From Escherichia phage P818: a DNA stretch of 49,175 bases. The stretch lies in sequence record ON062054.1. One strand, 5' to 3'. Positions 35 to 36,303 of this stretch are shown here, one piece after another. The position numbers and the translations under genes were made by a program. The number at the start of each line of letters is the position of its first letter. Positions within the stretch are counted from its first letter, which is position 1. The notes below the pieces were generated by a model that had not been told where the DNA came from, ran no database searches, and worked only from the letters and a program-made list of their open reading frames with translations.

Positions 35-487
35 TCAAAAGGGAATATCGTCGTCGAATTGGCTTTTCTGCTGCGGTTGCTGACGTTGAGGTTGTTGCTG
101 TTGTTGTTGAGAATGCTGTCGCTGCTCGCCTTGACTATGCTGCTGCGCTGGCTCGCGCTGGCTGAATTGCAACTGAGGACGGATCATTTCAGCGGTGACG
201 TAAACGGTCCCATCATTACCCTGTCGTGAAGATAAGTGAAGTGTATCGGCAGAAATCGAGACAACCTTACCTTCCTGGAACGCTTCATCATACCACTGCA
301 TGACGTTTTCTTTTGCGAAGAACGTAGCGCGGTAGTTGCTGTAAACCGTTTCATCCTCTCCCTGCTGATTGCGAATCTTCATACGCTCTGACAGTTCGAC
401 GGCGTACATTTTCCAGCGACCATTATTGTTACTGCCTTCTTTGGTGAATGGTGCTTTGCGGATCTGTCCAGTGATTACGTGTGGCAT
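35..487 (-). CDS. ssb: Single-stranded DNA-binding protein
   Basis: 150 aa; OB-fold-like N-terminus, Q/P-rich linker, acidic C-terminal tail ending FDDDIPF (canonical SSB-Ct); RBS AAAGGAAAA upstream. Confidence 0.85.
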   Translation of the reverse strand: MPHVITGQIRKAPFTKEGSNNNGRWKMYAVELSERMKIRNQQGEDETVYSNYRATFFAKENVMQWYDEAFQEGKVVSISADTLHLSSRQGNDGTVYVTAEMIRPQLQFSQREPAQQHSQGEQRQHSQQQQQQPQRQQPQQKSQFDDDIPF

Positions 488-525: not shown

Positions 526-1182
526 TTAGAATTGCTCGATGGATTCAGATTGTACAGGTTCAGAAGGTGCATTTGCAACCTTATCCTCAACCTTTTGATT
601 GTCAGCCTTTTTTGCTGGCTGGAATCCGCGAGCGTTACCAATGCTAAGCTCAGCCTTGCGCTTCTGCAAGTGGTCTTCTGCGATCTTCCATTCCGCCGCG
701 CCAAGTGAACCCTTTGCGCTCTTATAAATCACCTGTAGGTCTTCCAGCTTATCACAGTTGGTGATCAGCTTTTTGTAATCTGCTGCCGTACGCTTTGCGA
801 TCTCTGCGTCGTCATCGCTCTGAGTAATACCAAGTGCCGCGCATAATGCGTAACGGCGACCGTATGAGGTTGTTGAGCCGTAAGCCTGGGCGCTAATCTT
901 CTCGATCGGCATATTGTACTGGAACGCAAGCCACTCGCCAGAACTGTGAAGGATGAGCGTCTCAATATGCATAACCTTTTCGGTTGATGTATCAAGATTC
1001 GACTGAATTACCATTAAGTCATGCTCTTTCAATGCTGGCTCAATGGCCTCTAAGACGTCCGTCAGGTTTGAGTAGTGACTTTTTAGGTGAGTGTTATAGC
1101 CTGATTTTTTTGCGATAGCAAACTGCTTTTTAGCTGCAATTAGCGCTGATGAAACAGTAGAAAACTTCTCTGATGTACGCAT
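526..1182 (-). CDS. Erf-like single-strand annealing protein
   Basis: 218 aa; Erf-family-like core, adjacent to exonuclease and SSB (recombination module synteny). Confidence 0.6.
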   Translation of the reverse strand: MRTSEKFSTVSSALIAAKKQFAIAKKSGYNTHLKSHYSNLTDVLEAIEPALKEHDLMVIQSNLDTSTEKVMHIETLILHSSGEWLAFQYNMPIEKISAQAYGSTTSYGRRYALCAALGITQSDDDAEIAKRTAADYKKLITNCDKLEDLQVIYKSAKGSLGAAEWKIAEDHLQKRKAELSIGNARGFQPAKKADNQKVEDKVANAPSEPVQSESIEQF

Positions 1183-26874: not shown

Positions 26875-26894
26875 TTAGCAATTCGTGCTATTTA
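26875..26894 (-). promoter_or_regulatory. Dyad motif copy 5
   Basis: Minus-sense TAA-ATAGCACGAATTGCTAAA, then terminator-like hairpin CCCGCCCCGGCGGG plus T-run in the 22-bp spacer, then TATAGT. Confidence 0.6.
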
Positions 26895-27509
26895 CCATGG
26901 AATATCATCGGCCCATTCGTCAATCTGAGGCCGCAGGCCGCAGGAAATAGCCACCGCCAAAACACCACCTTCAACATCACCATTTACCAGATGCACATCA
27001 TGCTCGTTATATTTCTTGTAATCAGGAAAATGAGATTCCTTGATGCGGATGTAATTACGGCTATCGCCTGCGAAGGTCTTGCCATCCATAAATAGGCGCA
27101 CAACTGTAACGTCGTGACCATCTTCCACTAGCTGAATAACCTCATCAGGGAAACCGCCATCAGTGCAAACAAAGCTAAATCCATCGTCACACAGTCGGAT
27201 ATGTTCACTCATCAGCTTACCGAACTGCTGATTGCCAAAGAGTGGCTTAACTACCGTCTCGCTAATCCAGATCATGAACTCACGGCAGGTCTTGCCACCG
27301 AGAAAGTCATGAGGCATCTCTTTCTGATCGCGGTCGTCGTATGCAGTGATGAACTTTGAGAAAGCTCTTGCACCAAGGATGGATGCTGCAATCTCAAACA
27401 TCGGACGCTTGAAGCTGGTCGGGATGCAATTGTAATCTGCTGCCAGTGCATTGCCGATCGTGTCTTTACCTACGCCAGCAGGGCCGTTGAGAATGATAAT
27501 CTTTGACAT
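26892..27509 (-). CDS. P-loop kinase (polynucleotide or nucleotide kinase-like)
   Basis: 205 aa from MSKIIILNGPAGVGKDT (Walker A) with AGGAAT RBS; C-terminus ends ADDIPW. Confidence 0.55.
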   Translation of the reverse strand: MSKIIILNGPAGVGKDTIGNALAADYNCIPTSFKRPMFEIAASILGARAFSKFITAYDDRDQKEMPHDFLGGKTCREFMIWISETVVKPLFGNQQFGKLMSEHIRLCDDGFSFVCTDGGFPDEVIQLVEDGHDVTVVRLFMDGKTFAGDSRNYIRIKESHFPDYKKYNEHDVHLVNGDVEGGVLAVAISCGLRPQIDEWADDIPW

Positions 27510-32249: not shown

Positions 32250-32300
32250 TGACCGATCAGGTGTGATTCGCTATTGTTACCTCATCGAAACGAAGGAGAT

Positions 32301-32735
32301 ATGAAGATGAAGAACGGCGTAATTTACAAGCACAGTGACGGAACTACTCGGTTCGTCACGACCTCAGGCCGGATGTATATTTGGGCTTACGGAGCCTGGC
32401 GGTTCAAGGTACAGATGCATGAGGCGACGTATAATATGTTCCTCCGCGCTGCACGACTCAAAGATAACAAGGTGTTCGTTGCGAAGAGTCGCAAGGTATT
32501 CATGGATAATCGCGTCGCGTTCGATCCTATTGACTACCAGGCGGTTGAGTTCACTGGTCTAAGGTTGAGTAAAATTCGGTTGTTGCGCAGCGAACAGATT
32601 GCAATGATTCAGCAAAATTCGGCTATTGCGCACGCCACGGAAGCACGACATCGCCTCCTGACTGGTTATCAGCCCATCATCACGCCGACGCCGTTTTACG
32701 TGCATAAGCAACGACCACCGAAAATCCATAAATAG
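32301..32735 (+). CDS. Hypothetical early protein
   Basis: 144 aa; start refined to ATG after AAGGAG RBS. Confidence 0.55.
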   Translation: MKMKNGVIYKHSDGTTRFVTTSGRMYIWAYGAWRFKVQMHEATYNMFLRAARLKDNKVFVAKSRKVFMDNRVAFDPIDYQAVEFTGLRLSKIRLLRSEQIAMIQQNSAIAHATEARHRLLTGYQPIITPTPFYVHKQRPPKIHK

Positions 32736-32813: not shown

Positions 32814-33038
32814 ATGTCAGTTAAAGCTCAGAACGTAGTGGCACACATCGAAGCAAAAGGCCGTGCAATCGTCAAGCTGGACCGCGCCGCAGGCGTAAGC
32901 CAAATTACCATCACGCGCCGTGAGTTCGACCGCTACGTTGTTGGAACACATCCAGGCTCAATCATCCGTAGCCTCACCCGCGCCGAGATGGTCAACCTGT
33001 TAAACGATAACTCACTTTACATCAATTCCTGGAGCTAA
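32814..33038 (+). CDS. Hypothetical small protein
   Basis: 74 aa; AGAGGAAG RBS. Confidence 0.55.
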   Translation: MSVKAQNVVAHIEAKGRAIVKLDRAAGVSQITITRREFDRYVVGTHPGSIIRSLTRAEMVNLLNDNSLYINSWS

Positions 33039-33040
33039 CA

Positions 33041-33256
33041 GTGAATCAAGATAATTTCTGGAGCCGCCACCGCGCGGCACTTGAAGCCGGACTAAATGAA
33101 GAGTGGGCGCTCAAGGTTGCTTACGGATGCATCGAACTCGATGACGCATTGGGCGTCATGGATATGGATCTGGAAAGCGAAAGCAACCAGTCAGTGTACG
33201 GGATCGGGGATGATTTCGACTACCGCTTAAAATTTGATGACGGAATACCGTTCTAA
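33041..33256 (+). CDS. Small acidic protein with SSB C-terminal-tail mimic (ends FDDGIPF)
   Basis: 71 aa; GTG start 6 nt after GGAG; acidic; last residues KFDDGIPF versus SSB FDDDIPF. Confidence 0.55.
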   Translation: MNQDNFWSRHRAALEAGLNEEWALKVAYGCIELDDALGVMDMDLESESNQSVYGIGDDFDYRLKFDDGIPF

Positions 33257-33505: not shown

Positions 33506-33663
33506 TGCTCAAGCCATCCGATTTGAACTACTACGACAACGACACGATCGCGAAGCTCTCAGGTCAAGGATGGTATCCATGGAGCACCAGCGCTCAGGTT
33601 GAAGACTTGCAAAGCAGTTACGAAATCACACAGAAAGCAATTGAGAAGGCTAAGAAGAAATGA
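33505..33663 (+). CDS. Hypothetical small protein (52 aa)
   Basis: Not in the ORF track; TAATG coupling upstream, ATGA coupling downstream; AAGGTGA RBS. Confidence 0.35.
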   Translation: MLKPSDLNYYDNDTIAKLSGQGWYPWSTSAQVEDLQSSYEITQKAIEKAKKK

Positions 33664-34229
33664 ATAGAAAAAGAAGTCCAGACGGAAAATTTTCTGGTGA
33701 TCCGCTACTACCTGGAGGTTTTCATAATTGCAACTCATGCGGAATTAAAAAGGAGGCTGACGATAAAAACTTTAGAACAATAAATAAAGGAAAAACATGC
33801 GAGAGCCTAAGCAAAACTTGCAGAAAATGCGAGTATCAAAAAGGAAAGGATAAACACGCAAGGAACATGAAAAACCCTGAATTTGCAGATGCTAGAAGGG
33901 AAAGGTGCAGGAACTGGAGGAGCAACAACAGAAGTAAGGTGGCGCTTAAAAATTATCAAGCAATAGATAAAAAGAAAGGACTTACATGCACCATGACAAT
34001 TGATGATGTTGAGGAGTTGCAGTCAATGCCATGCTACTATTGCGGAGATACGGATCGGGTTGGTGCTGACAGGATTGACAACTCACTTGCTCACACGCGC
34101 AAAAACTGCCTTCCATGTTGCCCTGATTGTAATATCTGTAGGAGTAACACTTTTTCAGTTGATGAGATGATGGTGATAGGCAAAGCGATAAGACTCGTAA
34201 AGAAATCAAGAAATAGCACGAATTGCTAA
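33660..34229 (+). CDS. HNH-type endonuclease / zinc-finger protein
   Basis: 189 aa; multiple CxxC pairs and RIDNSLAHTRKNCLPCCPDCN motif. Confidence 0.6.
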   Translation: MNRKRSPDGKFSGDPLLPGGFHNCNSCGIKKEADDKNFRTINKGKTCESLSKTCRKCEYQKGKDKHARNMKNPEFADARRERCRNWRSNNRSKVALKNYQAIDKKKGLTCTMTIDDVEELQSMPCYYCGDTDRVGADRIDNSLAHTRKNCLPCCPDCNICRSNTFSVDEMMVIGKAIRLVKKSRNSTNC

Positions 34230-34294: not shown

Positions 34295-34648
34295 ATGGCT
34301 ACCACACTGACAAAGAACTTCGTGAGTTCAGACAATAAACTCTTTAAAGCTCGAGTGAAAGATGATGTAGAGCAAATCAAGGTAAGTGGCAAGTGGGTTA
34401 ACCTGGATATCAAAGGTCGTTACATCAAGACTAAAACCCTTTACGTTACGAAGGTGAATCATAAATCTGCCGTTAAAAAATACTTCACGCAAGGTAAACG
34501 CTATCAGGTTGACATGCGCGCAGGACTCGGTAGTAACGCTGGTTACATCTTTGATAATGATGGAGTGGCCTGGCAGTTGTACCGCTCGGATGACGTCGGA
34601 TTCGAAACGTTATGCGGAACCTACCGATTTGAGGCGGCGTATAAATAA
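34295..34648 (+). CDS. Hypothetical protein
   Basis: 117 aa; AAGGAAAA RBS. Confidence 0.55.
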   Translation: MATTLTKNFVSSDNKLFKARVKDDVEQIKVSGKWVNLDIKGRYIKTKTLYVTKVNHKSAVKKYFTQGKRYQVDMRAGLGSNAGYIFDNDGVAWQLYRSDDVGFETLCGTYRFEAAYK

Positions 34649-34719: not shown

Positions 34720-36303
34720 ATGTTTGATTTCAACGAAGATAAATTGTCAATCGATCAGGTAATGGCTGTAGCCGCTGCCGACAACCTGCCGCCTTTGCGC
34801 GTTGCCATTAATGCGAATGGGTACAGGCAGAGCCAGTCGTTCTGGAAAGCTCCAACAGAAATCGACTCGGGCGGTGACAAATATCCGGTTATCTCACTTG
34901 GTAACGATTATGATGTCGTTGGCAAGCTGTCAAGCAATGCCGCCCGCTCTGTCCAGTTCCCTGAGTCGTCAGCATACATGCATTTCCTCGGATGCATATC
35001 AGCCGCCATGCTGGGCCGCTTTACGGTTGAGTATCACGGAACACAACAGCCGACCGCTCTGTATGTCGTAACCAGTCAGCCACCATCGACAGGTAAATCA
35101 GCCATCAACTCACTTTCGCTGGCCCCGATGATCGCAGAGACTGAACGACTCAACGAGATCCGAAAGCGCGACCGCAAGAAGATTATGGCTAAGCTTTCCG
35201 CTCTATCCAAGGAGATGAAGCAGGAGAAATCACCATCTGACATGGCGGCGCTGTTTGAGGAAAAAGAAGAACTGGAAGAAAAACTGGAACGCCTTTGTGA
35301 CATCGTATTCCCCGTATCCGACACCACGCCGGAAGGTCTTGCGCGAATCAACAACCGCCAGGGCAACTTTGCAGTAATCTCGGATGAAGCAACGAGCGTG
35401 AACTCACTGTTAGGCATGACCTATGGTGACGGCTCAAAGAAAACGAACAGCGAGCTTGTGCTTAAGGCTTGGGATGCTGGTAACGTATCTATCGCCCGTG
35501 CGAACGCAGACAATAACATGAGCTTCATTGCGATGGGCTGCATATCTGTAATTGCACAGGATGAAACAATAAACGCGATCATGAATGCTGGTGCGCGTGG
35601 TATCGGTGTGTCAGAACGTTTCTTGCTTGTGCGTGAGAAGTCATTCCTTGGCGAGCGTGTATTCGTTGACGAAAAAGGCGAATCAACATACGAGCCGATT
35701 GATGGCGGACTCAAGGCGGACTACTTCCGTCTGGTCCATGAGATCATGAGCGAACACGAAGTCAATCTGACAGTGAGCACATCGGCGATGAAATATCTCA
35801 ACCGTGCGCGTCAGGATATGGAACCTCACCTTGCGGACGGCGGGAAGTATTCACACACAATGCTTCGCGGCGCGCTGGGTAAGTTCGATAAGCAGGCCAT
35901 CAGGATCGCAGCTGTTCTTCACACTGTGCGTAACTGGTTTAATCCCAATGGCGGGAGTCCGCAGAAGTCCAGAGAGATTGAGCTTGACACAATGCAGGAA
36001 GCGGTAATTATGTTCCAGGAACTGAGTAAGACTTATCTGTCATCTGCAAACGCTGCTGGTCATGCTGGCGACCATGCGGAGATGAATAAGCTGATCGATA
36101 TTCTGATCAAGCAAGGTAAGAACGGGAAAGGCGTTGTAGGTGTACGATCCCTATATGAAGCGGCTCGCAAGGTTAAACCCTTTGAAGGGCAAAGTGGTGT
36201 AATGACTCGCATCAAAGATCACCTGATCCCTATGCTTGATGAGAAGAACTATACGTGCCTGATTGGTGATAAAATTTACATTAATCCGCGACTGCTGGGG
36301 TAA
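34720..36303 (+). CDS. P-loop NTPase, putative replication initiation/helicase-loader-type protein
   Basis: 527 aa; Walker A PSTGKS and Walker B VISDEA; N- and C-terminal blocks shared with the 30512-31078 paralog. Confidence 0.6.
   Translation: MFDFNEDKLSIDQVMAVAAADNLPPLRVAINANGYRQSQSFWKAPTEIDSGGDKYPVISLGNDYDVVGKLSSNAARSVQFPESSAYMHFLGCISAAMLGRFTVEYHGTQQPTALYVVTSQPPSTGKSAINSLSLAPMIAETERLNEIRKRDRKKIMAKLSALSKEMKQEKSPSDMAALFEEKEELEEKLERLCDIVFPVSDTTPEGLARINNRQGNFAVISDEATSVNSLLGMTYGDGSKKTNSELVLKAWDAGNVSIARANADNNMSFIAMGCISVIAQDETINAIMNAGARGIGVSERFLLVREKSFLGERVFVDEKGESTYEPIDGGLKADYFRLVHEIMSEHEVNLTVSTSAMKYLNRARQDMEPHLADGGKYSHTMLRGALGKFDKQAIRIAAVLHTVRNWFNPNGGSPQKSREIELDTMQEAVIMFQELSKTYLSSANAAGHAGDHAEMNKLIDILIKQGKNGKGVVGVRSLYEAARKVKPFEGQSGVMTRIKDHLIPMLDEKNYTCLIGDKIYINPRLLG

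Follow-up and report, generated by a model that had tools for sequence, protein, structure and literature searches.

The 71-residue protein encoded at 33041–33256 of the window (the whole stretch of DNA that was analysed, 49,175 nucleotides of Escherichia phage P818, sequence record ON062054.1) ends in FDDGIPF, a near copy of the C-terminal tip of the bacterial single-strand DNA-binding protein (SSB). Hundreds of related phages keep an ending of this type, which makes a functional docking tail probable. A further reading, that this subfamily mimics the SSB tip, its free Ile-Pro-Phe plugging the pocket for that tip on one host SSB-interacting protein, or on a few, while the N-terminal domain adds specificity, is plausible but unproven, and we favour it only tentatively. 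The feature itself is real and seems to be undescribed; the docking code is known, the carrier and its implied use are not. The window belongs to a T1-like phage (Drexlerviridae), and in this region it is about 93–95% identical to Escherichia phages CJ19, vB-EcoS-XT34, ESCO41 and BUCT-XGG-1. The gene and the parts of its product are as follows.

33041–33256, forward strand: gene of the small protein, with a GTG start and a TAA stop (33254–33256), encoding an acidic product of 71 amino acids, MNQDNFWSRHRAALEAGLNEEWALKVAYGCIELDDALGVMDMDLESESNQSVYGIGDDFDYRLKFDDGIPF
33031–33034, forward strand: ribosome-binding site GGAG, 6 nt 5' of the GTG
33041–33184, forward strand: N-terminal domain, residues 1–48, with three predicted short helices and the family motif ALGxMDMDxES at its end (from alignments and AlphaFold2)
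33185–33202, forward strand: spacer, residues 49–54, of low confidence (pLDDT below 50) and holding the most variable columns in the subfamily
33203–33253, forward strand: C-terminal module, residues 55–71, subfamily-specific, GDDFDYRLKFDDGIPF, the best-conserved part of the protein in the subfamily
33233–33253, forward strand: terminal heptapeptide FDDGIPF, the SSB-tip look-alike

The preliminary description of this DNA had proposed a small acidic early protein ending in FDDGIPF. The open reading frame was found as placed; it has a GTG start, a length of 71 residues and an acidic composition (pI 4.05, with 16 Asp/Glu against 5 Lys/Arg), and the C-terminus reads ...YRLKFDDGIPF. We infer early expression from the position of the gene among small genes upstream of the helicase. 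The GGAG lies directly 5' of the stop codon of the preceding gene (33036–33038), and this position suggests that the small protein is produced by coupled translation. The same GTG start and the same arrangement of GGAG and stop codon are present in a close relative (L008). Promoter and terminator scans around the gene gave nothing better than shuffled sequence.

The phage encodes an SSB-like protein of its own, with which the tail can be compared directly.

35–487, reverse strand: phage SSB-like protein, 150 amino acids, ending ...KSQFDDDIPF, tail codons at 38–58

This protein matches PHROG 44, 'single strand DNA binding protein' (E 6.9e-26). It has no Pfam SSB match, and its match to TIGR00621 is marginal (E 0.019) and falls mostly in the Gln-rich C-terminal part. 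The protein looks like a host-type tail on a divergent ssDNA-binding core. Six of the last seven residues are identical between the two proteins (FDDGIPF and FDDDIPF), which bears out the earlier claim of a near copy of the SSB tail. The codons are ttt gat gac gga ata ccg ttc in the small protein versus ttc gac gac gat att ccc ttt in the SSB gene; most synonymous sites differ, which indicates that the similarity is held at the protein level and rules out a recent gene conversion or DNA copy from the SSB gene. The likeness fades beyond these seven positions: the eight residues before IPF are YRLKFDDG, with a net charge of zero, versus PPMDFDDD in Escherichia coli SSB.

In the published description of SSB-tip pockets, the terminal Phe enters a hydrophobic pocket, its alpha-carboxylate meets a basic lip and the Asp residues face a basic ridge (PMC10164576). 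The terminal Phe side chain and free alpha-carboxylate of the small protein match this definition of the tip, as, less clearly, do its upstream Asp residues. The terminal aromatic residue with its free carboxylate is present (...IPF followed directly by the stop codon), as is the Ile/Leu-Pro-Phe core, in the form IPF. The Asp run before the core is D-D-G rather than the D-D-D of SSB, with further acidic residues upstream (GDDFD). Disordered presentation is consistent with the AlphaFold2 prediction, in which residues 41–71 have no secondary structure and a pLDDT of 49–55, as would suit a flexible peptide. An OB-fold ssDNA-binding domain was not detected in the small protein, which has no Pfam, NCBIfam or PHROG SSB match and a predicted fold of three short helices.

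The small protein matches phrog_9085 over its full length (E 1.1e-34), and its first 48 residues match phrog_9323 (E 5.4e-23); both families are annotated 'unknown function'. Relatives were found by tblastn in 457 phage records, including T1 ST6 (YP_003939.1, ending DDYIPW), and the family also occurs in many metagenomic clusters. Alignments give an N-terminal domain of about 45 residues with the consensus xGLNxEWAxKVAxxxxxLxxALGxMDMDxES, which the small protein keeps. In the family alignment the middle 20–40 residues cannot be aligned, and the last three columns are almost invariantly a hydrophobic residue, Pro, and Phe or Trp. A divergent homolog of 59 residues, Rogue1 gp73 (L082, 322–501), ends in CCDGLGCVECLPFI and was missed by tblastn with the target protein as query; its existence extends the family into Rogunavirinae.

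The preliminary description had set the existence of relatives lacking the terminal motif against a role for it. To avoid circularity, we counted tails among proteins retrieved with queries consisting of the N-terminal domain only, and short homologs were found to keep the tail. A search of 1.84 billion cluster representatives returned 39 matches. Among the short ones, 23 of 29 end in hydrophobic-P-[FW], two of these with an added Trp; the others are one ISF ending (a P-to-S change), four fragments or frameshifts, and one protein of 96 residues with a different end (P0082). The corresponding search of IMG/VR gave 74 loci encoding 68 short and 6 long proteins, and the tail is present in 65/68 of the short ones, the exceptions being one P-to-Q change and two truncated sequences. 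The long relatives have no such tail (0/7 among the cluster representatives and 0/6 in IMG/VR, 0/13 overall).

These long relatives carry the N-terminal domain, with its ALGDMDMD motif, inside proteins of 150–310 residues from unrelated phages (L077–L081, L069, L078; P0069, P0070, P0075, P0080, P0086–P0088). Phages with this longer form include phages of about 158 kb, a PolA-encoding phage and a siphovirus, and the proteins have no PF tail. In some of them there is a fusion to a CPAC..CPAC zinc ribbon (phrog_3786) or to phrog_15368; the ending ..AAWEWQNEKNAWLDSRL is shared by many.

Within the subfamily of the small protein (34 distinct representatives, 76–96% identity), conservation is highest in the last 17 residues, where the mean minor-residue count is 1.06 versus 2.56 in the N-terminal domain. 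The last seven residues are invariant in all 34 save for one F-to-Y change at position -7. Such endings are otherwise scarce. In six complete genomes of the family, with 2825 stop-to-stop ORFs of at least 45 amino acids, endings in hydrophobic-P-[FW] are confined to the SSBs, the small protein, a single kinase and a spurious ORF of 55 residues, and about 700 kb of flanking sequence around the 74 related loci holds only two unrelated ORFs with this ending.

The same data bear on whether the ORF or its tail has any function of its own, the ending being a product of chance or of constraint from an overlapping signal. The protein is small, starts with GTG and has no known domain, as such a reading would expect. 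Against it stand the recurrence of the family in the phage records and metagenomic clusters, the preservation of the tail with different codons and in different DNA contexts, a background rate for such endings of about 1 in 2800 ORFs, and the position of the downstream ribosome-binding site, which falls after the stop codon. The conservation data exclude chance and lack of function, an explanation to which we give almost no credence.

The relatives differ in the kind of tail that they carry, and five types can be distinguished.

FDDGIPF: the subfamily of the small protein itself
DDDDYIPW: T1 type, strongly acidic
CxC..CxxC knuckle and then (I/V/L/M)PF: position -5 is usually Asp or Glu
Knuckle with one residue after the Phe: CRECIPFW and CSECVPFL; CVECLPFI in Rogue1 gp73
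CKRCFPF: the largest group of relatives, with Arg at -5

IPF is the commonest ending in the family, with IPW, FPF, LPF, VPF and MPF as variants, and [DE]-x-[IVL]-P-[FW] is common to most subfamilies. An acidic, SSB-like context is found only in the subfamily of the small protein and in the T1 subfamily. As read from the sequences, the published pocket would suit these two types well; the fit is tolerable for the acidic knuckle types and poor for the extended and the basic ones. Several features speak against mimicry: the Arg at -5 of the CKRCFPF group is expected to repel the basic ridge; an extra residue after the Phe (IPFW, VPFL, LPFI) displaces the alpha-carboxylate that SSB-tip pockets need; and T1-type tails end in Trp, while the eight residues preceding IPF in the target itself are net neutral. 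The N-terminal domain, moreover, has no recognisable fold or partner.

These variants raise the alternative that the family element is a hydrophobic-Pro-Phe(-hydrophobic) plug, ancestrally borne on a CxC..CxxC zinc knuckle and directed at a host pocket other than that for the SSB tip, so that FDDGIPF would resemble SSB by convergence or coincidence. In most subfamilies four Cys residues directly precede the tail, the FPF type is preceded by Lys/Pro/Ser-Arg, and in relatives ending IPFW, VPFL, VPFW or LPFI the Phe is not strictly C-terminal. In six complete genomes, furthermore, the SSB tail is always ..DFD[DS]DIPF while the small-protein tail is IPF, IPW, VPFL or FPF, which means that the two do not covary. 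Against this alternative stand Ile-Pro-Phe, the exact SSB tip, as the commonest ending, the independent occurrence of Asp-rich contexts in two knuckle-less subfamilies (DDDDYIPW and FDDGIPF), and an acidic residue at -5 as the rule outside the FPF group. No better-fitting known pocket motif could be named, and we consider the alternative rather improbable. The tail of the small protein matches neither QL[SD]LF, the beta-clamp motif, nor DIPAFL, the C-terminal peptide of FtsZ. Readings of the tail as a beta-clamp motif, an FtsZ C-terminal peptide, a degron or an outer-membrane beta-signal all appear to be poorer matches.

The surroundings of the gene are conserved among T1-like phages.

32814–33038, forward strand: 74-residue gene (phrog_4344), a conserved neighbour, upstream in 64/68 loci
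34295–34648, forward strand: basic protein of 117 residues (phrog_2684), a conserved downstream neighbour, in 64/68 loci
34720–36303, forward strand: DUF3987 helicase (Pfam PF13148, E 2.9e-39), which closes the conserved block, in 65/68 loci

The gene order is the phrog_4344 gene, the small protein, a variable insert, the phrog_2684 gene and the DUF3987 helicase (64–65 of the 68 loci, and also L004). Between the small genes and the helicase the window has an HNH/endonuclease VII-like gene (phrog_1035, 33660–34229, forward strand); a positional homolog occurs in only one of the 68 related loci, and the gene is therefore probably a mobile homing endonuclease.

Klebsiella phage cp45 lacks the small-protein gene. 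Enterobacter phage BHUENT1 carries it, although the helicases of the two phages are 99.8% identical and their flanking genes about 90–100%. The two phages differ by a cassette swap (L090 1843–2544 in cp45, L089 38625–39774 in BHUENT1) in an otherwise near-identical region: cp45 has an unrelated ORF of 233 residues with no Pfam match, and BHUENT1 has the small tailed protein together with a 114-residue ORF and an HNH endonuclease. The cargo of the slot that follows the phrog_4344 gene is variable, and the absence of the small-protein gene from near-identical surroundings shows it to be dispensable. A copy was detectable in 457/900 helicase-bearing records; the true share is higher, since tblastn does not pick up divergent forms such as Rogue1 gp73. 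Together with its absence from cp45, this distribution speaks against the gene product as an essential replisome subunit and favours an accessory factor for host interaction. The idea of an essential replisome adaptor is likewise weakened by cp45.

The tail could instead dock on a phage-encoded partner (the DUF3987 helicase, the primase, Erf or the exonuclease) at the same sites that read the tail of the phage SSB; the small protein and the kinase described below would then be accessory subunits at a replication or recombination hub. The place of the gene in the conserved block that ends with the helicase is in keeping with this idea, as is the T1 annotation, which has a helicase, a primase and an SSB and no DNA polymerase. 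A similar tail on a metabolic enzyme, the dNMP kinase, makes most sense as recruitment to the site of replication, and tail-mediated contacts of this sort have a precedent in T7 (PMC4124056). Nevertheless, cp45 does without the gene next to a nearly identical helicase and flanks; the N-terminal domain also occurs in phages without the DUF3987 helicase (L006, which has its own PolA, L007, and the phages of about 158 kb); and tail types differ between phages whose helicases are 65–71% identical. On balance we regard docking on a phage partner as unlikely. An obligatory link between the N-terminal domain and the DUF3987 helicase is ruled out, as long relatives sit in unrelated phages.

The kinase that appeared in the background count is the other protein of the window with an ending of this kind, outside the SSB.

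26892–27509, reverse strand: dNMP-kinase-like P-loop protein, 205 amino acids, ending WADDIPW, tail codons at 26895–26909

Nearly all members of its close clade (at least 70% identity) end in [DE][DG][IL]PW, versus more distant T1-like phage kinases, T1 ST62 included, which are about 15 residues shorter and have no tail. The conservation within the close clade indicates that a second non-SSB protein in this lineage acquired and kept an SSB-like tail, and the conserved DDIPW of this protein counts in favour of mimicry. A broader proposal is that the SSB tip serves as a portable address label on non-SSB proteins of T1-like phages, with the mini-protein plugging or re-targeting a specific host SSB-interacting enzyme and the kinase tethering nucleotide supply to the replisome; we hold this to be possible but doubtful.

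Natural fusions point in a similar direction as regards the tail. Two metagenomic clusters (P0050 and P0051) contain in-frame fusions of 46–49 residues that join about 29 N-terminal residues to the last 20 residues of the small protein. The N-terminal part comes from the upstream variable gene (a homolog of window 32274–32735), and the junction reads ..AYG/IGDDF... In L093 (1104–1253) the fusion replaces the upstream gene, the 74-residue gene and the N-terminal domain, and the tail alone is kept. Fusions that retain only the tail suggest that the tail module works, or at least persists, on its own. Codon 53 of the window's gene (33197–33199) encodes Tyr (SVYGIG) where almost all close relatives have Asp (SVDGIG), and this Tyr makes a YG that matches the AYG microhomology at the fusion junction.

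The Erf-family annealing protein of the window (526–1182, reverse strand) ends in ...QSESIEQF, and the endings in T1 and three other genomes include ...SITNFE, ...DISSFN and ...SITDFE. This conserved C-terminal S-I-x-x-F(x), which is distinct from IPF, is possibly another docking tail.

The AlphaFold2 model of the free small protein has helices at residues 6–15, 20–27 and 33–37 with a pLDDT of about 70–81, and a C-terminal half of low confidence without structure. When E. coli exonuclease I (ExoI), a 30-residue GS linker and the small protein were modelled as a single fusion, the mean pLDDT was 52.8, ExoI itself came out unfolded and the tail had a pLDDT of 28–34, which makes this model unusable as evidence for or against docking. 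Searched by fold, the free-protein model matched only uncharacterised members of the family in BFVD and nothing in the PDB with an E-value better than 2.8, and a PDB sequence-profile search of the small protein returned nothing. Neither the small protein nor its relatives and conserved neighbours matched Pfam, NCBIfam or PADLOC. As regards defence and anti-defence families, the small protein has no PADLOC match and no named PHROG function.

GenBank records of the family all call the protein hypothetical, and our full-text literature searches found neither a description of the family nor a natural protein that copies the SSB tip outside an SSB; phages of this family fall outside the scope of the HIDEN-SEQ essentiality preprint. 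These searches agree with the preliminary description, which had not recognised the protein as a described function of the T1 family.

Taking mimicry of the SSB tip as the preferred reading, we propose that the small protein would be a dispensable, two-part host-interaction protein of T1-like phages, in which a three-helix N-terminal domain of about 45 residues and a flexible spacer would carry a C-terminal docking peptide with FDDGIPF. The free C-terminal Ile-Pro-Phe would enter the SSB-tip pocket of one host protein, or a few, from among the genome-maintenance or defence proteins whose normal docking partner is SSB; the hydrophobic hole would take the Phe, the basic lip the alpha-carboxylate and the basic ridge the Asp residues. 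The acidic N-terminal domain may provide a second contact and the source of specificity. Since it has a single tail and no DNA-binding fold, the protein would act as a competitive plug or a re-targeting adaptor rather than as a substitute for SSB. The analysis establishes the sequence, the conservation of the tail across the family, its predicted flexibility, and a dispensable gene in a variable genomic slot; docking in the SSB-tip pocket, the role of the N-terminal domain, the identity of the target and the outcome are four points that we infer. A candidate target, sensible but unproven, would be exonuclease I, or else a different nuclease or helicase of ssDNA that endangers the intermediates of phage Erf/exonuclease recombination.

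Two variants of this mechanism appear less attractive. Since the phage has kept a canonical tail on its own SSB, and a broad competitor would hinder the phage too, a broad decoy is unlikely. Recruitment of SSB partners to phage DNA, which the preliminary description had offered beside competition, is unlikely as well given an acidic helical domain with no detectable DNA-binding fold.

The SSB tip is a hub peptide that organises at least 17 bacterial enzymes of replication, repair and recombination, and it is a drug target. If the tail does bind a tip pocket, phages would tamper with the SSB interaction network through a short peptide mimic, and, if the binding is antagonistic, the small protein would be the first natural protein antagonist of that network. 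Binding would also make available a set of tail variants tuned by evolution (IPF, IPW, FPF, IPFW), ready for mapping the specificity of the pocket, and it would give a function to a gene present in roughly half of T1-like phages, which are widely used in therapy collections. It would further connect this family with recent work on a defence system whose trigger threshold is set by phage SSB-like tails together with exonuclease I. The tail on the dNMP kinase suggests that this label also serves to localise enzymes.

The closest known counterpart is the C-terminal peptide of SSB itself (...MDFDDDIPF). The small protein shares with it an extreme C-terminal Ile-Pro-Phe after Asp-Asp and Phe, carried on a segment predicted to be flexible, and the phage infects enterobacteria whose SSB tip is FDDDIPF. 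The carrier differs, being a helical acidic protein of 71 residues that has no OB fold and shows no sign of binding ssDNA or forming tetramers. There is also Gly for Asp at -4, the upstream YRLK is not acidic, and Trp, Phe at -3, basic surroundings or one more residue at the end are all tolerated among relatives of the small protein.

Ugi, p56, Ocr and Gp5.9 are small acidic phage inhibitors that mimic DNA by means of a folded surface. They resemble the small protein in size, in acidity and in the plausible block of a host DNA-metabolism enzyme by mimicry. The small protein, in contrast, would mimic a short linear peptide, and no sequence or fold similarity to these inhibitors was found.

Phage T7 offers another parallel, and its gp4 has a tail similar to that of gp2.5. 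The acidic, Phe-terminated tail of gp2.5, the T7 SSB, docks on the T7 DNA polymerase and helicase (PMC4124056). The parallel lies in the use by T7 of an acidic tail with a terminal aromatic residue for docking on replication proteins of the phage, such tails being read or carried by more than one protein. The T7 tails, however, bind the phage's own polymerase and helicase, whereas the T1 annotation is without a DNA polymerase, and the motif of the small protein is the host IPF tip, not the T7 sequence.

Phage SSBs that carry the host tip are a further relevant group, and include the SSB of this phage (35–487) and Bas52_0087 of phage Bas52, a large OB-fold SSB-like protein ending in FDDDIPF that, with exonuclease I (SbcB), modulates the DRT10 defence system and is linked to its activation (bioRxiv 10.64898/2026.04.29.721553). 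In these proteins, as in the one described here, a phage protein presents the tip of host SSB. They are OB-fold proteins that coat ssDNA, which the small protein is not; it would present the tip off the DNA, which favours competition over recruitment to ssDNA. The work on the Bas52 protein and exonuclease I indicates that SSB tips borne by phages matter for host nucleases and immunity.
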